This document shows positions 4,436 to 40,039 of a DNA stretch of 51,958 nucleotides, piece after piece. The notes beneath the pieces are model-generated. The model worked only from the letters and a program-made list of their open reading frames with translations. It was not told where the DNA came from and made no database searches. Position numbers and translations under genes: made by a program. Source of the DNA: Candidatus Sivonenia alaskensis PMM_0068 (GTDB taxonomy: Bacteria > Cyanobacteriota > Cyanobacteriia > Gloeobacterales > PMM-0068); contig CASBPW010000100.1 in the NCBI GenBank assembly GCA_949127685.1, positions 1 to 51,958 on the forward strand, read 5' to 3'. Each line of letters opens with the position of its first letter. Within the stretch, counting starts at the first letter, position 1.

Positions 4436-4584
4436 AATAACTTCCTCTAGTGAGAAAAGTAGCAATCTCACCTCTAGACTAGCTTGGACAGAGGGTGTTT
4501 TGTCATATCTTAAAGGGGAGGGCTTGGTAACTAAATCTTAAACCGTGACTCTTGTGCCCTTTACGACTCCCGCGAAGGAGATAT

Positions 4585-5280
4585 ATGCGTACAGATGACA
4601 GTTCGCAGATGGGTGGTGAAAAAGAAACGGGGCGGCTTGAAGCTTTCAGTGACGCGGTTTTTGCCATCGCCATTACCCTCCTCGTTCTGGGAATCAAGGT
4701 GCCGCCTCACATGGAAGGAGTATCTTCTTGGGGATTGTTGACCCTGCTCTTTAAACAGTGGCCTTCCTATCTAGCATTCTTCTTGAGCTTCATTTCCATT
4801 CTCGTTATTTGGGTGAAACATCACAACGTGTTTACCCATATCAAACACGTGGACAATCACTTCCTCTATCTGAATGGTCTTTTACTTCTGTTTGTGACCT
4901 TATTACCCTTTCCTACAGCTCTGCTTGCGGCTTATATCCAGCACGAACCCAAGGTTGCCGCCGTCGTCTACTCAGGAAACTACCTATGCATTGCCCTAGC
5001 CTTTAATCTTCTTTGGCGGTATGCCTCCTCGGATGGCTACAGGTTGTTGGGAAAAGATATGGACCAAGGGCTTGTGGTAATTATCAATCGACGCTGCAAT
5101 TATGGGCTTCTCTATACTCTTGGCTCGGTATTTTTCGCATTCGTTAACGAGAATCTTTTTTTGGCCTATCTGCTTATCTTTTTGCCTTTCAACATGTATC
5201 CATTATCTCTCTGGCGTACGAATAGCGATTCAGGCAAGAACAGGACTCACGCAAAGCCCCCTAAATCCCCCATAGCGTAA
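4585..5280 (+). CDS. TMEM175/DUF1211-family potassium channel homolog, paralog 1
   Basis: GRLEAFSDAVFAIAITLLVL carries the RxxxFSD signature of helix 1, followed by 6 predicted TM segments. ATG 4585 is preceded by AAGGAG at 4575-4580. The track's upstream start (4552) is unlikely. Confidence 0.8.
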   Translation: MRTDDSSQMGGEKETGRLEAFSDAVFAIAITLLVLGIKVPPHMEGVSSWGLLTLLFKQWPSYLAFFLSFISILVIWVKHHNVFTHIKHVDNHFLYLNGLLLLFVTLLPFPTALLAAYIQHEPKVAAVVYSGNYLCIALAFNLLWRYASSDGYRLLGKDMDQGLVVIINRRCNYGLLYTLGSVFFAFVNENLFLAYLLIFLPFNMYPLSLWRTNSDSGKNRTHAKPPKSPIA

Positions 5281-5478: not shown

Positions 5479-5625
5479 AACAACTTCTTGGAACGGGAAA
5501 AATGGTATCTCACTTCTAGGCTAGCTCTGCCAGACAGTACTTTGCCATATCTTGAAGGGGAGTGCTTAGTAACTGAATCTTAAACCGTGACTCTTGTGCC
5601 CTTTTTGATCCCGCAAAGGAGATAT

Positions 5626-6270
5626 ATGCGTACCGATGACAGTTTGTTGATAAGTGCTGAAAAAGAAACGGGGCGGCTTGAAGCTTTCAGTGACGGGGTT
5701 TTTGCCATCGCCATTACCCTCCTCGTTCTGGAAATCAAGGTCCCCCATCTGGAAGGAGAATCTCCTGTAGGGCTGTTAACGCTGCTGATTAAGCAGTGGC
5801 CTTCCTATTTGGCATTCTTCCTCAGCTTCATTACCATTCTCGTTATGTGGGTAAATCATCATATTTTGTTTACCTATATCAAGCGCGTGGACAAACGCTT
5901 TCTCTTTCTGAATGGTCTTTTACTTCTGTTTGTAACCTTCGTCCCCTTTCCTACCGCCCTGCTGGCGGAATATATTCAGCACCCCGAAGCCAAGGTTGCC
6001 GCTGTCGTCTACTCAGGAACCTACCTATGCATCGCTCTAGCCTTTAATCTCCTTTGGCGGTATGCCTCGAATGGCTACAGATTGTTGGGAAAAAATGTGG
6101 ACCGAGCGCTTGTGGAAAGTATCAATCGACAATATCTTTTGGGTCCACCTGCTTATCTTTTCGCCTTTTTCCTCGCATTTATCAACGTGGCAGCGAGTGT
6201 GGGCTTCTCTATGCTCTTGGCTCTGTATTTTGTTTTTACAGGCTCTCTGTGGCGTGGAAATAGCGATTGA
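5626..6270 (+). CDS. TMEM175/DUF1211-family potassium channel homolog, paralog 2
   Basis: GRLEAFSDGVFAIAITLLVLEIKVP... ATG 5626 has the same AAGGAG spacing as paralog 1. The N-terminal two thirds are nearly collinear with paralog 1; the C-terminal third has diverged. Confidence 0.8.
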   Translation: MRTDDSLLISAEKETGRLEAFSDGVFAIAITLLVLEIKVPHLEGESPVGLLTLLIKQWPSYLAFFLSFITILVMWVNHHILFTYIKRVDKRFLFLNGLLLLFVTFVPFPTALLAEYIQHPEAKVAAVVYSGTYLCIALAFNLLWRYASNGYRLLGKNVDRALVESINRQYLLGPPAYLFAFFLAFINVAASVGFSMLLALYFVFTGSLWRGNSD

Positions 6271-7510: not shown

Positions 7511-8200
7511 ATGGGTATGAACCTCAAGAAGTTTGCCCCTGCTCTCTTACTGGCCTTGGCAACTTTTCTGCCTCTTCCCGTAATGGCTCAATCTACAGCA
7601 GCCCCTGAAAAGCCAGCCACTAGTGCTCCCGCTGCTGAGAAAGATGCAGGTAAGACAACAAAGAAAACAAAAACCAAGAAAACCACCGATCAATCAACCA
7701 AGAAGACTGAAGATGCCGCGAGTACGGCTGAGCCTGAAAAAGACTCTGGCAAGACGATGAAGGAGGAGAAGGGAGCTAAACCTACTGCTCCCACCACCGC
7801 TACTCCCAAAAAAACAATGAAGAAAGAAAAGGGATCTCAGGAACCCGCCGAGGCGACTACGGCTCCAGCTGATGCTCCTATGATCAAGGACAAAGACAAT
7901 TCGACGCTCGAGCCCACAGATACAGATTCTAAGAAAGCTCCTGCTGTCGCTGCTCCGACTAAGGATAAGGACTCAAGCAAAACCACCTCTGGGGAAAGCA
8001 CCAAGAAATCCACGACAGCTGTCATTGGTATCAACTCTGAGTCTTTAACAAATCTCCAGCAGGTCAAAGGAATAGGCCCAGTGACGGCGAAGAAGATTGT
8101 TGATGGTCGCCCTTACAAGTCCTTGGATGATTTGGTTACCAAGAAAGTCTTAACTCAGAAGCAGTTTGATAAATTCAAGCCTCAAATGACGCTCAAGTAA
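7511..8200 (+). CDS. Secreted ComEA-like helix-hairpin-helix DNA-binding protein with a long K/T/E/P-rich low-complexity linker
   Basis: Signal peptide ...LPLPVMAQS, about 150 aa of low complexity, and a C-terminal LQQVKGIGPVTAKKIVDGRPYKSLDDL (HhH, ComEA type). Confidence 0.7.
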   Translation: MGMNLKKFAPALLLALATFLPLPVMAQSTAAPEKPATSAPAAEKDAGKTTKKTKTKKTTDQSTKKTEDAASTAEPEKDSGKTMKEEKGAKPTAPTTATPKKTMKKEKGSQEPAEATTAPADAPMIKDKDNSTLEPTDTDSKKAPAVAAPTKDKDSSKTTSGESTKKSTTAVIGINSESLTNLQQVKGIGPVTAKKIVDGRPYKSLDDLVTKKVLTQKQFDKFKPQMTLK

Positions 8201-23045: not shown

Positions 23046-23765
23046 ATGCTACGCAGAATTATATATTTCCTGTTTGGAGAGCGGGCGGGCAGAGTCCTCG
23101 TTGGGGGCTGGAATTGGCTGTGGGGAAAACCTATAGATGAAGGCGGACAGGTTGCGGTTTCTGTGGCTGAGGAATCTCTGCGCACCATGCAGGAATCTGT
23201 CCAGCGCTTAACCCAGGCTGTATCAACCCAAGTGGCTGCCTACCAACGCGCGCAGCAGAAATATCAAGAAAAAGTTAAAGAATATAATCAATACGAAAAG
23301 CAAGTCCAAACAGCCCGTGGCAATAGTAATGGAGAAGCAGCCCGTCTTGCTATGGGGCGTTTGATTCAGGTAGAGAAGATACTCCCTCAGTTGGAAGAAC
23401 AGGTGAGTCAAGCCGAGCAGTTTGTCAATCAGGCCAAAGAAAAGCTCAACCGAGAACGCGCGAAACTAGAAACTTCTAAGACTGACCTGCAAAATATGAA
23501 AGACCTAACCGAGATCAATGAGGCGTTAGAACAGATGGCTAAAGTGAATTCAGACTACAGTATCGACTCAGCCCGTTCCCAATTTGAAGCGGCCAAAGAT
23601 GCCGTCCAACGCAAGAATCTGAAAATATCAGCTTTCAACGAATTATCCGAAAACCCGGCAGAGAAGGTAGACGAGGACTTACAAAAAATGACGTTAGATG
23701 ATGAGATTACTCAGCGCTTGGCTAGATTTGATACGCCTGAAAAATTGCCGGAGAATCCATCGTGA
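23046..23765 (+). CDS. Divergent PspA/IM30 (Vipp1)-family coiled-coil protein
   Basis: EESLRTMQESVQRLTQAVSTQVAAYQRAQQKYQEK..., GEAARLAMGRLIQVEKIL... and the C-terminal LDDEITQRLARF parallel PspA blocks (MIQEMEDTLVEVR..., EDLARAALIEKQKL, DDAISEQLAQLK). The N-terminus is atypical (MLRRIIYFLFGERAGRVLVGGWNWLWG). Confidence 0.6.
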   Translation: MLRRIIYFLFGERAGRVLVGGWNWLWGKPIDEGGQVAVSVAEESLRTMQESVQRLTQAVSTQVAAYQRAQQKYQEKVKEYNQYEKQVQTARGNSNGEAARLAMGRLIQVEKILPQLEEQVSQAEQFVNQAKEKLNRERAKLETSKTDLQNMKDLTEINEALEQMAKVNSDYSIDSARSQFEAAKDAVQRKNLKISAFNELSENPAEKVDEDLQKMTLDDEITQRLARFDTPEKLPENPS

Positions 23766-36974: not shown

Positions 36975-37129
36975 AGTCTTAAGGATGTGAAGGGCAAGTG
37001 CTATCTACCAAGCCTACTGCTGGAGAGGACCATTCCTCAACAAGACCGCCTTGACAAAGCGTACTCATAATGAGTACGCTTTGTAAGATAAGACCCATCG
37101 TCCATTTTGCTCAATTAGGAGTCAAATCT

Positions 37130-37864
37130 ATGTTGTCGAATCGAGAAGGCCAGAAAGTTCCAAACGTTACATTCCCTACCCGCCAAGATAATGAGTGGGT
37201 GAATGTAAGCACCGATGACTTATTCGCAGACAAGACCGTAGTCGTTTTCTCCTTGCCTGGAGCATTTACCCCTACCTGCTCGTCTGTGCATCTCCCTGGC
37301 TATAACGAATTGGCTAAAGTTTTCAAAGAAAATGGCGTGGACAAAATTGTTTGTATATCGGTCAACGATACTTTTGTGATGAATGAATGGGCCAAGGACC
37401 AAGAAGCAGAAAATGTGATCCTGATTCCCGATGGCAATGGAGCGTTCAGCGAAGGCATGGGCATGCTCGTGGATAAGACGGACCTCGGCTTTGGGAAGCG
37501 GTCTTGGCGTTATTCCATGCTGGTCAAAAATGGCGTCATCGACAAGATGTTTATTGAGCCAGAAGAACCAGGGGACCCTTTTAAAGTATCGGATGCTCAA
37601 ACTATGCTCCACTACCTCAATCCCAAAGCAGTCAAGCCTAGAACAGTTTCCTTGTTTACAAAAGTAGGATGTCCTTTCTGCGCCAAGGCTAAAGCCATGC
37701 TGCAGGAACATGGTTACGATTACGAAGAGATCATCCTGGGCAAAGATGTCACTACGCGCTCGGTACTGGCTATGACTGGAGCGATGACCGTTCCCCAGGT
37801 GTTTATCGATGGTCAGCTCATTGGTGGATCTGAAGATCTAGCCGCTTACCTAGGGGTTGCCTAA
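37130..37864 (+). CDS. Hybrid peroxiredoxin-5 / glutaredoxin fusion protein
   Basis: The Prx5 part carries [19 protein letters not shown]. The C-terminal Grx part carries [14 protein letters not shown]...[21 protein letters not shown] 37130 lies 8 nt after AGGAG; the track start 37070 adds 20 unlikely residues. Confidence 0.9.
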
Positions 37865-37978: not shown

Positions 37979-38008
37979 TGCTGCGGAACTTCCTCCGCAG
38001 CATTTTTA
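37979..38008 (+). terminator. Intrinsic terminator downstream of the Prx-Grx gene
   Basis: TGCTGCGGA (37979-37987) pairs with TCCGCAGCA (37994-38002), with a 6-nt loop, followed by TTTTTA. Confidence 0.7.
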
Positions 38009-38083
38009 TTCTCCAAAAATGTGCCTTGGCCAAGAACAACGCTATCTTAAGAATATCGTTATTTTATTAAGGTTGCAGGAGCC

Positions 38084-38212
38084 ATGCTGATTGCTGCTAG
38101 TTTAGCCTCTGAAATTATTGGCATAGGGATTGGAATGTTTGTCTTGACCGTAGTAGGAATGGCTGTGGGCTTTGGCCTTCTTAAGGTTGGCGGAGAGCAT
38201 ATCAGGCTCTAA
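38084..38212 (+). CDS. petM: Unlisted 42-aa single-TM ORF resembling cytochrome b6f subunit PetM
   Basis: MLIAASLASEIIGIGIGMFVLTVVGMAVGFGLLKVGGEHIRL. The tail VGMAVGFGLLKVGGE parallels remembered PetM tails (FVGWGLGVLLLKIQGAE / LGLAWGFVIIKLQGSE). It is below the 60-aa cutoff of the track. AGGAG lies only 2 nt from the ATG, an atypical spacing. Confidence 0.45.
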   Translation: MLIAASLASEIIGIGIGMFVLTVVGMAVGFGLLKVGGEHIRL

Positions 38213-38227
38213 AGGTCTCTCTAACGC

Positions 38228-38398
38228 CTAGAAGAACATCCGCTCGTACTCTGCCAGGAGGTCATCAATTTCATTGAGGGCCTCCCGCACGTCACTTTGA
38301 AGAGAGGCGCTTAGGTCTGTACGCTCCAGTAACGAAACGACAAAGCTACGTTTCTCTCGAATTGCTTCGATCTTGCCCTCAAGTACTTTACGGTCCAT
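38228..38398 (-). CDS. Unlisted 56-aa helical ORF (hypothetical)
   Basis: MDRKVLEGKIEAIREKRSFVVSLLERTDLSASLQSDVREALNEIDDLLAEYERMFF. AAGGAG lies 5 nt upstream of the ATG. It replaces the implausible 134-aa track ORF 38311-38715 in another frame. Confidence 0.4.
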   Translation of the reverse strand: MDRKVLEGKIEAIREKRSFVVSLLERTDLSASLQSDVREALNEIDDLLAEYERMFF

Positions 38399-38626
38399 GG
38401 CAGCTCCTTGGGTTCATGAATATCTTCCTTCCCTAATATCCTACGAAAAGAAGTAACATTCAGCCCTGTGTCTAGATTTGTGCAACGGTTATTACTTCCT
38501 GATGTACGATATTGATGATTCTGTAAAGTAATTTGCAATATCCCTTTAAGATTCGCCATGCGGCAGCAAGTTATCGAAGGAAAATTTGTAGCCCTCCCCC
38601 CCATTGCAGTAAGAGGTTGATGCCCA

Positions 38627-39385
38627 ATGAAGAGCCCGGTACTCGCTGTTCTAATTTTTGGCTTTGGAGCTTTAGCTCTAACCAGTTGCAGTTCTGACCG
38701 TAGCATCGGATCCACCGCAGTGCCGGTCTATGGTATTGTCCAGTGTCCAAAAGCCAGTGAAGGTCGGGGTACTATTGCCCTTGCTCCTGGCACCGTCCTG
38801 AAGAGTACTAATCTTTGTCTGGAAGCACGTTCCGCTAAGTATGAAGGCAAGATTGCCAAGATTATCTGGGGAAGCACTTCTCCGATTGGGCCGGTCTCTG
38901 CTGAACTTGCCAGGGATGCCTCGGGCAAAATTGCGTTAACGTATGCGGGCGGTCGCCACGGTACGCAAGCAACTTTACAGCAAGGCAGTCAGCGTATACC
39001 CTTCAACTTCACAATTAACGCGCTTGAAGCCAGTGGAGCTGCAGCGAGTCAAATAGATACTTCCACCAACTTCGTAGGTTCTATAACCGTGCCTCCGCTG
39101 AGAGGCCTGGGGTACACCGATTCAAGAGGTCGGGGCGCTGACGCTGGCTATGACCAATCCACAGCTTTCTATGCCTACAGTCCAGAAGGAGCCGTAAAGG
39201 GTACAGAGGAATCTAGGGTCCGAGAAAGTGGTGAAGGCAAAATAACATTCCAGGTGAAGAATATCAATGCTGACAAGGGTGAAATCTCAGGGACCTTTGT
39301 CTCGGATCAACCTTCTGGAGTCGAAGGGAAAGGTGAAGTCCAGGTAGAAGGCTACTTTATCGGCAATTTTAAAGCAGGTGCTTAG
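38627..39385 (+). CDS. Divergent PsbO (manganese-stabilising protein, MSP) family protein with a lipoprotein signal peptide
   Basis: The signal peptide ends in the lipobox ALTS-C. Blocks QRIPFNFTINALEAS, IDTSTNFVGSITVPPLRG, DSRGRGADAGYD, GKITFQVKNINADKGEISGTFVSDQPS and VQVEGYFIGNF are collinear with canonical PsbO, and the Cys pair is conserved. AAGAGG SD. See finding. Confidence 0.7.
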   Translation: MKSPVLAVLIFGFGALALTSCSSDRSIGSTAVPVYGIVQCPKASEGRGTIALAPGTVLKSTNLCLEARSAKYEGKIAKIIWGSTSPIGPVSAELARDASGKIALTYAGGRHGTQATLQQGSQRIPFNFTINALEASGAAASQIDTSTNFVGSITVPPLRGLGYTDSRGRGADAGYDQSTAFYAYSPEGAVKGTEESRVRESGEGKITFQVKNINADKGEISGTFVSDQPSGVEGKGEVQVEGYFIGNFKAGA

Positions 39386-39412
39386 ACCTGCTTTAGTCTA
39401 GATATAGATATT

Positions 39413-39440
39413 AAAAAACCTCCTGTCCAGGAGGTTTTTT
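39413..39440 (+). terminator. Strong, symmetric intrinsic terminator after the PsbO-like gene
   Basis: AAAAAACCTCCTG-TC-CAGGAGGTTTTTT: a GC core CCTCCT/AGGAGG flanked by A6 and T6, 28 nt after the stop codon. Confidence 0.8.
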
Positions 39441-39496
39441 AATACTTTGACAGGGGTACTCTAACAAAGCATTCTATAATCACGGGATCCTTTCTG

Positions 39497-40039
39497 ATGG
39501 TGAGGCGTGAGGTAGTGAAATACGTTGGTGCTCTACTCTGGCTTCTTTTGAGTGCCGTCTGCTTGAGTAAACCTGTGTTTGCAGACCAAAATCCTACCTA
39601 TCAAAACCAGAATCTCTGGCGAACCGTTTCCTTTCCCGTAAACAATTTTTCTCGTATTTCTTCTCGTTTCGGCTATCGTTCTTCGGCAACCGGTGGGGAA
39701 GGGCAAGAGTTTCACAATGGCTTGGACCTGGCGGCCCCGGCAGGCTCCTATATCCGTTCTTGGGCTGCTGGCACCGTCAAAAAAGTAGCGTTCGATTCCC
39801 GATGCGGGTGGCATGTACTCGTGGAATCCGGGCCTTGGACCCATCTGTACTGTCATATTCAAGCGGTGGCCGTAGAAGCAGGAAATATCGTTGAAGCCGG
39901 ACAGGTAATTGCTGCCGTGGGCTCTACCGGAAGAAGCACGGGTCCACATCTTCACTGGACGCTACGCTATCAGGGACAACTGATCAACCCGGAGCGAGTG
40001 CTTGAGCAAATGCAGGCGGCTTGGGCTCAACAGCCTTAG
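39497..40039 (+). CDS. M23/LytM-family metallopeptidase
   Basis: Signal/TM segment, then FHNGLDLAAPAGSYIRSWAAGTV and GSTGRSTGPHLHWTLRYQGQLINP (HxxxD and HxH motifs). Confidence 0.85.
   Translation: MVRREVVKYVGALLWLLLSAVCLSKPVFADQNPTYQNQNLWRTVSFPVNNFSRISSRFGYRSSATGGEGQEFHNGLDLAAPAGSYIRSWAAGTVKKVAFDSRCGWHVLVESGPWTHLYCHIQAVAVEAGNIVEAGQVIAAVGSTGRSTGPHLHWTLRYQGQLINPERVLEQMQAAWAQQP

Follow-up and report, generated by a model that had tools for sequence, protein, structure and literature searches.

A strongly diverged PsbO of an uncultured Gloeobacterales cyanobacterium, probably tethered to the membrane by a lipid anchor

PsbO, the manganese-stabilising protein (MSP) of photosystem II (PSII), is stated, like PsbU and PsbV, to be cut by signal peptidase I and to be soluble (PMC5033237). 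This textbook view of a soluble PsbO is based on model organisms, whose PsbOs are of the signal-peptidase-I type. For the Gloeobacterales, a basal order that lacks thylakoids, published genome analyses describe only a poorly conserved psbO, the product of which is nevertheless taken as a functional subunit (PMC7368068, PMC8386580, PMC12216592). The Gloeobacter violaceus protein is cited in the literature as BAC91632.1, and WP_218079464.1 (P0008 in our set) was taken as the PsbO of Anthocerotibacter panamensis in a 2025 review. A standard lipobox has been reported for another PSII protein of the Gloeobacter lineage, Ycf48 (PMC8038367).

The DNA analysed here, which we call the window, is a stretch of 51,958 nucleotides from Candidatus Sivonenia alaskensis PMM_0068. 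An earlier note on its sequence had singled out a 252-aa ORF at 38627-39385 as a divergent, lipoprotein-type paralog of PsbO. The ORF itself was found exactly as described, running on the plus strand from an ATG at 38627 to a TAG ending at 39385, with a Shine-Dalgarno-like AAGAGG 8 nt 5' of the start (Table 1). On the 3' side, RNA folding of 39386-39470 gave -26.8 kcal/mol (z = -3.67, with 0 of 200 shuffles equally stable), and the hairpin within this stretch is likely a bidirectional intrinsic terminator after psbO. A pattern scan of 38000-39600 for sigma-70 promoters and terminators delivered nothing useful and missed the folded hairpin.

Table 1. Features of the psbO locus (positions in the window)
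Feature	Positions	Strand	Basis
psbO, Gloeobacterales-type manganese-stabilising protein precursor	38627..39385	+	252 aa, stop codon within coordinates; ORF list
Signal peptide, residues 1-20 (n-region MKS, hydrophobic core PVLAVLIFGFGALAL), ends L-T-S before Cys21	38627..38686	+	sequence read
Cys21 codon, predicted lipid-modified mature N-terminus	38687..38689	+	invariant Cys in Gloeobacterales PsbOs
Tether and remnant of the N-terminal segment, residues 22-39, Ser/Thr/Ala/Pro-rich	38690..38743	+	pLDDT <50 for residues 22-34; alignments
Cys40 to Cys64, disulfide-pair region, including Arg47	38744..38818	+	alignment
Site of 11-residue deletion between K75 and I76, removing the beta1-beta2 loop (Tv 56-66)	38846..38851	+	alignments
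Core of head-domain loop VPPLRGLGYTDSRGRG, residues 155-170, with R159, D165 and R169	39089..39136	+	alignments
Shortened C-terminal loop QPSGVEGKG, residues 228-236	39308..39334	+	alignments
Hairpin 3' of psbO with A/U tracts on its flanks	39410..39443	+	RNA fold

The product of 38627..39385 is a clear member of the PsbO/MSP family and a beta-barrel protein, so that the core of the earlier proposal stands. The Pfam MSP profile PF01716 was matched with 106.8 bits (E = 1.4e-30, cut-off 25 bits), residues 39-246 aligning to profile positions 16-240 of 242, while an NCBIfam scan of the 252-aa protein gave no family at E <= 10. A phmmer search against the PDB sequences returned PsbO chains only (best E = 1e-20). 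The AlphaFold model (mean pLDDT 78.9, pTM 0.72, barrel strands >90) has the PsbO-like beta-barrel that had been anticipated, and the best 41 Foldseek matches to it in the PDB are all PsbO chains; the barrel-only structure 5g38 fits with a TMt of 0.87 and an rmsd of 2.3 A. The head loop was modelled with low confidence (pLDDT <50 for residues 161-183).

The status of the gene as a paralog did not hold up. According to the earlier note, the protein would be an additional, membrane-tethered PsbO with a role in assembling or repairing PSII, or with a different target in the periplasm, while a canonical psbO would be present at another place in the genome. Its identity to crown PsbO of about 30% makes it very divergent indeed, the GTGLAN motif, the beta1-beta2 loop and the acidic loop are all lost, and a lipobox also occurs in the assembly factors CyanoP, Psb27 and Ycf48. 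However, its closest relatives, orthologs that are 43-95% identical to it, are the annotated or published PsbOs of Gloeobacter kilaueensis, A. panamensis and Cyanaurora vandensis and those of Gloeobacterales MAGs, all taken as Gloeobacterales PsbO in databases and papers, and the genome analyses cited above know no other psbO. In a neighbour-joining tree with a midpoint root, which separates the Gloeobacterales PsbOs from all others, the Gloeobacterales clade is monophyletic (100% bootstrap) and sister to all other PsbOs, and thus mirrors the species tree. Within it, the window PsbO and its uncultured relatives (82-95% identical to each other) form a clade of their own, which lies nearer to Anthocerotibacter and Cyanaurora than to Gloeobacter. 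The whole family amounted to 117 clusters among 1.84 billion representatives. Two of the 117 are of the Gloeobacterales type (439 and 392 bits), as is a single fragment (146 bits), and the best canonical PsbO scores 130 bits. No intermediate or additional PsbO clade was present among these 117 family representatives. Since, furthermore, the residues on the side of the oxygen-evolving centre do not vary and the lipobox does not distinguish the protein from canonical PsbO (both discussed below), we regard an extra paralog as very improbable, and nothing pointed to a role in assembly or repair or to a target outside PSII. The best reading is an ordinary but strongly diverged Gloeobacterales PsbO; the phylogeny came out as the alternative that the earlier note had itself named against its paralog, a fast-evolving orthologous PsbO.

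Concerning copy number, a genome scan yielded 10 loci, all in Gloeobacterales MAGs, with one Gloeobacterales-type copy per bin, barring strain copies in one bin; the cultured Gloeobacter and Anthocerotibacter genomes are not among them, even though the search patterns fit their proteins. The two loci of ES-bin-141 were considered as paralogs and rejected, as only a handful of residue differences separates them and they are strain or assembly copies. A second MSP gene was not found within the window. Published genome analyses and the congruence of the trees suggest that psbO is present in a single copy. The PetM-like ORF that had been noticed upstream of psbO is real, but the order petM, orf56, psbO, M23 peptidase is kept only in the two closest MAGs, and this neighbour thus gives no functional argument. 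At 7511-8200, the window also encodes a secreted helix-hairpin-helix (HhH) protein, which we considered as a divergent PsbU; ComEA-type HhH proteins match it better.

Aligned with crown-group PsbOs, the protein is 28-33% identical (about 30% on trimmed columns), which agrees with the third or so that had been estimated by eye and goes beyond the divergence among canonical PsbOs. Its two Cys residues, 24 positions apart, indeed occupy the PsbO disulfide positions: they align with C19 and C44 of Thermosynechococcus vestitus (Tv; mature numbering, derived as precursor minus 26 on P0273), are invariant in 31 of 31 sequences of a family alignment (A2), and are predicted to form the conserved disulfide pair. 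Arg47, which lies between them, is invariant in our alignment of Gloeobacterales PsbOs (A1); Arg or Lys at the aligned position is described in a review as an inter-dimer contact. The head-loop residues facing the oxygen-evolving centre, R159, D165 and R169, correspond to Tv R152, D158 and R162 and show no variation among Gloeobacterales, crown cyanobacteria and eukaryotes, Asp158 being placed near the Cl-1 channel (PMC12661325). Elsewhere, the Glu found in most PsbOs (Tv E114) corresponds to Q122 in the window PsbO.

The remaining differences from crown PsbO are mostly deletions. Behind the second Cys, where a shorter stretch had already been noticed, 11 residues are gone, and with them the beta1-beta2 loop. 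The likewise suspected change of the acidic SD(T/D)D loop turned out as a shortening by 4 residues with loss of the acidic side chains, as QPSGVEGKG stands in place of QPSDTDLGAxEP and Tv D222-D224, E229 and H231 are lost. The N-terminal docking segment, which had been called missing, is reduced rather than wholly absent. Relative to crown PsbO, 7 residues are deleted here and the GTGLAN motif is lost; the lipobox Cys is separated from the first disulfide Cys by the 18 residues that are left, and the Tyr of 'LTY' still aligns. Of the full LTY(D/E)-I-GTGLAN segment, which has been implicated in specific PSII binding, this Tyr is all that is aligned in the window clade, and in the Gloeobacter clade it is absent too. 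Judged from the alignments, the loss of the segment is a lineage trait common to the whole order, and it does not exclude the protein from the PsbO family.

High divergence and several deletions would also be expected of a decaying, non-functional psbO remnant. In that case, it would be hard to understand why the ORF is intact and equipped with a ribosome-binding site and a terminator, why the identical deletions are common to the whole order, and why the prediction of the beta-barrel is so confident. Strong purifying selection acts on the gene (dN/dS = 0.05-0.16 against two relatives), and together with the order-wide conservation this effectively refutes a remnant and leaves it with a negligible probability.

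The lipobox that had been seen at the end of the signal peptide is genuine and conserved across Gloeobacterales. We used a rule that asks for K/R in the n-region, a hydrophobic core, L-(A/S/T/V)-(G/A/S)-C and a Cys at position 15-35; the window PsbO has K2 in the n-region, a hydrophobic core at 4-18 and L18-T19-S20-C21. The PS51257-type lipobox pattern is satisfied by it and by 35 of 35 Gloeobacterales PsbOs. Cys21 is invariant in all 35 while positions -2, -1 and +2 vary, and alignment A1 has L18 and C21 as invariant residues. This pattern suggests that Cys21 is lipidated. Pfam scans of 39 ORFs of the window (38 of at least 150 aa and the PetM ORF) detected neither lgt nor lspA. Our favoured explanation is that the gene is the psbO of an uncultured Gloeobacterales cyanobacterium and encodes an orthologous, diverged extrinsic PSII subunit that a lipid probably anchors to the cytoplasmic membrane on its periplasmic face; we consider this likely, at roughly two-thirds confidence.

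The same orthologous PsbO might instead go without a lipid, if the lipobox-like motif were no more than a site for signal peptidase I, or if the tether were clipped later, and would then be a soluble periplasmic PSII subunit. Several observations agree with this. L-T-S before the Cys is also compatible with the -3/-1 rule of signal peptidase I when the sequence is read by eye, PsbO, PsbU and PsbV pass in the literature as soluble proteins cut by this enzyme (PMC5033237), and no report of a lipidated PsbO from any organism was found in the openly accessible literature. The tether also appears dispensable because about 30% of one crown sample has an A-x-A type site in its place. On the other hand, signal peptidase I does not require a Cys at +1, and yet this residue is invariant in 35 of 35 sequences that are only 43-55% identical, right beside the variable positions -2, -1 and +2. 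Equivalent Cys residues are found in 119/120 and 70/100 crown precursors, and the Cys is followed by a low-complexity linker (pLDDT <50) as is typical of lipoproteins. We thus judge a non-lipidated PsbO to be unlikely, although it is the most serious competitor of the lipid-tethered subunit that we prefer.

The crown samples also decide how much the lipobox says about the protein's place in the family. The earlier note had treated it as a mark that sets the protein apart from canonical PsbO, and this is not the case: most sampled crown-cyanobacterial PsbO precursors have one (119/120 in one sample, 70/100 in another). Thermosynechococcus-type precursors are without a lipobox and are included in the roughly 30% of the second sample that have an A-x-A type site. 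Homology between both forms of signal peptide is still visible (MRYRALIVAFLA.CLG.LTAC versus ...LTLGGNALA|A). Because the lipobox is found in the basal order and in most sampled crown lineages, PsbO could be lipid-anchored in Gloeobacterales and the majority of crown cyanobacteria, and the anchor could be ancestral for the manganese-stabilising protein. This wider reading is tentative, and we would not quite put our weight behind it. In ancestors that lacked thylakoids, PsbO would then have been tethered to the membrane in the periplasm, and the soluble, signal-peptidase-I PsbO of Thermosynechococcus, Synechocystis and plastids would be a derived state.

For the lipid-tethered Gloeobacterales PsbO, the following course may be envisaged. 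The precursor would be exported via the Sec pathway by its 20-residue signal peptide, Cys21 would probably be diacylglyceryl-modified and become N-terminal after cleavage by signal peptidase II, and a flexible linker of about 13-18 residues would tether the beta-barrel to the periplasmic leaflet of the cytoplasmic membrane, the site of Gloeobacterales PSII. The protein would bind PSII and stabilise the Mn cluster. Docking on the PSII donor side may be achieved mainly by the conserved head-domain loop VPPLRGLGYTDSRGRG and without the beta1-beta2 loop, so as to shield the Mn4CaO5 cluster. As the beta1-beta2 loop and the acidic C-terminal loop are gone and the N-terminal segment is only partial, contacts to the neighbouring PSII monomer and the surface carboxylate cluster probably differ from those of crown PsbO.

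The gene itself is ordinary, being the psbO of a Gloeobacterales lineage not yet cultured. Few sequences are available from the deepest-branching oxygenic phototrophs, and this one is a useful addition when early PSII is to be reconstructed. In crown PSII, the beta1-beta2 loop, the N-terminal segment and the acidic loop are linked to dimer contacts and binding specificity, and also to proton handling. Because the deletions in these elements are order-wide, a structure of Gloeobacterales PSII should show a different docking mode of PsbO; none from any Gloeobacterales species was among the PDB matches (phmmer, Foldseek), and the accessible literature held no structure paper. That most cyanobacteria may have a lipoprotein PsbO is an under-discussed point: the lipobox is invariant in Gloeobacterales and widespread in cyanobacteria, although PsbO figures as a soluble protein in the accessible literature. 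If PsbO is lipidated, this would alter the view of its retention, especially where the donor side faces the open periplasm, and would also bear on ideas about assembly and about release-reconstitution experiments with non-model cyanobacteria.

Among known systems, the window PsbO is closest to the named Gloeobacterales PsbOs with which we compared it (G. kilaueensis WP_023171455.1, A. panamensis WP_218079464.1, Candidatus Cyanaurora (Aurora) vandensis WP_287130109.1). They are alike in length, in the lipobox Cys and in the three deletions relative to crown PsbO, have the head-loop motif PPLRGL(G/N)Y(T/L)DSRGRG and the K(I/L)IWG motif in common, and are 49-54% identical over the full length. 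With the lipobox-type crown PsbOs of Nostoc, Fischerella, Chroococcidiopsis (P0192, the aligned stretch of which matches PDB 9t5t chain O) and Gloeomargarita, the protein shares the MSP family, the fold of beta-barrel and head domain, the disulfide Cys pair, Tv R152/D158/R162, and a signal peptide with L-x-(A/S/G)-C at its end, after which comes a short linker rich in Ser, Thr, Pro and Ala. These crown proteins, about 30% identical to it, differ in keeping LTY(D/E)QI-GTGLAN, a beta1-beta2 loop of 11 residues and the acidic SDTD loop; in most crown sequences, the first disulfide Cys lies 26 positions after the lipobox Cys, as against 19 in the window PsbO. The PsbOs of T. vestitus, Synechocystis 6803, Prochlorococcus and plastids are alike in family, fold and functional head loop, but have an A-x-A type cleavage site or a bipartite transit peptide instead of a lipobox. 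Finally, the PSII lipoproteins CyanoP, CyanoQ, Psb27 and Ycf48 are similar in being donor-side PSII proteins with a predicted N-terminal lipid anchor; they have no kinship to the window protein in sequence or fold, and all but CyanoQ are assembly factors, whereas the window protein is a structural PsbO subunit.

Residues 39-246 of the window protein (numbering of its precursor) align with positions 16-240 of the 242 in the Pfam profile of the manganese-stabilising protein family, MSP (PF01716; E = 1.4e-30, 106.8 bits, curated cut-off 25). A phmmer search of all PDB sequences returned 34 distinct sequences, PsbO in every case (best E = 1e-20). An AlphaFold2 model was built from a 31-sequence alignment; its mean pLDDT is 78.9 and its pTM 0.72, with the barrel strands above 90 and residues 22-34 and 161-183 below 50. 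All 41 Foldseek matches of this model in the PDB at E <= 0.001 are PsbO chains, among them the crystal structure of the isolated barrel, 5g38 (TMt 0.87, rmsd 2.3 A), and the matches that follow are unrelated (E > 5e-3). The profile search and structure prediction proposed in an earlier note thus bear out its claim of a PsbO fold, far beyond chance. The reading frame has the extent and length given there. An AAGAGG motif lies 8 nt 5' of the start, and the RNA downstream (39386-39470) folds at -26.8 kcal/mol (z = -3.67). ORFs that overlap it in other reading frames or on the opposite strand are short and lack support.

The earlier note took the gene for a divergent, lipoprotein-type paralog, perhaps serving PSII assembly or repair or another target. 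A word-indexed search of 5.8 billion proteins gave 15 clusters, all Pfam MSP. Relatives at 82-95% identity are metagenomic proteins, named "photosystem II oxygen-evolving enhancer protein 1" by JGI, and an NCBI entry; those at 43-54% are PsbO of Anthocerotibacter panamensis, Gloeobacter kilaueensis and Candidatus Cyanaurora vandensis. By exact look-up, one compared sequence (P0008) is WP_218079464.1, which a 2025 review lists as A. panamensis PsbO beside G. violaceus BAC91632.1 (PMC12661325). According to published analyses, Gloeobacter, Aurora and other Gloeobacterales do have psbO, but a "poorly conserved" one, with at most 36% identity to other cyanobacteria, which share at least 55% mutually; it is taken there as the functional subunit (PMC7368068, PMC8386580, PMC12216592).

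A profile built from the Gloeobacterales proteins, run exhaustively with HMMER against 1.84 billion cluster representatives, retrieved 117 representatives of the PsbO family, with no intermediate or extra clade among them. Two full-length Gloeobacterales clusters scored 439 and 392 bits and a fragment 146, against 130 for the highest-scoring canonical PsbO, that of Gloeomargarita. In a neighbour-joining tree (213 trimmed columns; crown cyanobacterial, plastid and 12 Gloeobacterales sequences), all 12 of the latter form one clade with 100% bootstrap, and the midpoint root separates them from all crown and plastid PsbO, as in the species tree. Gloeobacterales sequences share 55% identity on average and those of crown cyanobacteria 59%; between the two groups the mean is 30%, close to the third estimated by eye. 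No second MSP gene was found within the window, and comparison with the two closest relatives gives dN/dS values of 0.16 and 0.05. The published genome analyses and the congruence of gene and species trees suggest that psbO is single-copy here. The novel-paralog reading is therefore not supported: all lines agree with a fast-evolving orthologous PsbO, the outcome that the note itself had named as refuting it. The gene is a Gloeobacterales PsbO, a kind already recognised, from an uncultured clade.

A divergent PsbO without lipobox on a 5.5 kb Logan contig (P0034), the second-best non-Gloeobacterales match (120.6 bits), falls at the base of the crown group in the tree; its KAIMLYAATIGP recalls the Gloeobacterales KIIWGSTSPIGP.

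Two conserved peptide patterns, searched for in one genome per GTDB species, matched at 10 loci, all of them in Gloeobacterales MAGs, Cyanaurora and "Aphanocapsa lilacina" among them. ES-bin-141 carries two near-identical psbO copies on different contigs (L008, L009); considered as paralogs, these two loci were rejected, as their products differ at only a handful of residues and are strain or assembly copies. The ES-bin-141 proteins (P0269, P0270) were deposited as 'hypothetical protein', and one source gives the label Gemmatimonadaceae, so annotation pipelines sometimes miss divergent Gloeobacterales PsbO.

The signal peptide reads MKS, PVLAVLIFGFGALAL and T-S before Cys21. A regular expression, which we take to represent the PROSITE PS51257-type rule, matched this protein and all 35 Gloeobacterales-type sequences compared. 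Neither L18 nor C21 ever varies, whereas positions -2, -1 and +2 do, the pattern expected under selection on the Cys itself. The lipobox is real, but does not distinguish this protein from canonical PsbO. Of the 120 database sequences that best match a Gloeomargarita PsbO (Gloeomargarita, Nostocales, Chroococcidiopsis, Leptolyngbya, Oscillatoriales), 119 have it and the remaining one is truncated at its N-terminus; it also occurs in 70 of 100 further sequences from a T. vestitus-type query. In the other 30, Thermosynechococcus and Cyanothece PCC 7425 among them, the signal peptide is otherwise homologous but has an A-x-A type site instead; PsbO of Prochlorococcus also lacks the lipobox. Among the crown precursors compared (P0033, P0147-P0265, P0273-P0372), most carry L-x-T-A-C, and L-T-A-C is present even in 9t5t chain O, the top-scoring PDB sequence. 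PsbO is described as soluble and cut by signal peptidase I (PMC5033237). Ycf48 of the Gloeobacter lineage is reported to carry a standard lipobox (PMC8038367). We found no discussion of a PsbO lipobox in the accessible literature; its prevalence in cyanobacterial PsbO, apparently overlooked, is of remaining interest.

The protein is most likely the PsbO subunit of Gloeobacterales PSII, to which it would bind. The precursor would be exported via the Sec pathway, Cys21 probably lipid-modified and the signal peptide cut off by signal peptidase II. [quoted passage not shown] Such a tether would plausibly help retention where the PSII donor side faces the periplasm, not a closed lumen. Since thylakoid-bearing cyanobacteria also have the lipobox, it cannot be a special adaptation to the lack of thylakoids.

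The window and the two closest MAG contigs (L001, L002) share a gene order (LytR, thioesterase, Prx-Grx, PetM, 56-aa ORF, PsbO, M23 peptidase) at 74-100% protein identity, which places the window in an uncultured Gloeobacterales lineage. The PetM-like ORF noted about 400 nt upstream is a genuine PetM, found 5' of psbO only in these two and absent there in more distant contigs. The 56-aa ORF had no Pfam match; its product is charged and helical-looking and, at 95-100% identity in L001 and L002, better conserved than those of the adjacent genes, so the ORF could encode a genuine small protein. Similarity of the L002 ortholog begins at residue 21 of the peroxiredoxin-glutaredoxin fusion, whose start is thus probably the Met there (37130) rather than 37070. 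The secreted helix-hairpin-helix protein begins with a signal of the signal peptidase I type, followed by a long low-complexity linker rich in Lys, Thr, Ala, Pro and Glu, and has its helix-hairpin-helix domain at the C-terminus. Its Pfam PsbU score, 27.6 bits, is only slightly over the threshold of 24.5, and it better matches HHH_3/ComEA (Pfam E = 2.5e-10; PDB 2duy E = 2.8e-7 against 6.5e-3 for PsbU); it could be ComEA-like or a poorly conserved PsbU of the lineage. The TMEM175-type pair is a tandem duplication. PspA/IM30, in a lineage thought to be thylakoid-less, may bear on the PspA-to-Vipp1 story.

Features of the window around and beyond psbO
Feature	Position	Strand	Details
TMEM175-type potassium channel domain genes, adjacent pair	4552-5280 and 5587-6270	+	PF06736, ~100 bits each
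Secreted helix-hairpin-helix protein	7511-8200	+	229 aa
PspA/IM30 (Vipp1 family)	23046-23765	+	239 aa; PF04012, 37.9 bits
Peroxiredoxin-glutaredoxin fusion	37070-37864	+	Redoxin and Glutaredoxin domains
PetM, cytochrome b6f subunit 7	38084-38212	+	42 aa; PF08041, 30.3 bits (cut-off 25.1)
Small ORF between petM and psbO	38228-38398	-	56 aa
psbO	38627 (ATG) to 39385 (stop)	+	252 aa
Strong hairpin with A and U tracts either side	39410-39443		3' of psbO; RNA folding

For comparison with Thermosynechococcus vestitus PsbO (Tv, mature numbering), the Thermosynechococcus-type P0273 served as reference; precursor minus 26 gives the published positions of C19/C44 and Asp158 and was so checked against PMC12661325. 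R47 of the window protein is conserved and aligns with an Arg/Lys that has been tied to inter-dimer contacts (PMC12661325). Also conserved are C40 and C64, the counterparts of Tv C19 and C44, as well as R159, D165 and R169, which match Tv R152, D158 and R162. Tv E54, E114 and H231 are presumably the residues proposed for Ca2+ binding; E54 and H231 are not kept in the order, and E114, variable there, is Q in the window protein. KLLTR has become KIIWG, and FLDPKGRG YTDSRGRG, throughout the order. Three deletions are likewise order-wide. Seven N-terminal residues are gone with GTGLAN, but 18 remain between Cys21 and Cys40, so the docking segment said to be missing is shortened, not absent. The stretch after the second Cys is indeed shorter, by the 11 residues of the beta1-beta2 loop (Tv 56-66), which we take to be the "cyano-loop" contacting CP47 of the other monomer (T. 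elongatus structures, 5g38 construct). The acidic SDxD loop is altered, as first noticed, by loss of four residues in Tv 222-229 and with them the D222-D224 cluster. Whatever effects we ascribe to the missing loops are putative; the order-wide loss of three surface elements from PsbO remains of interest.
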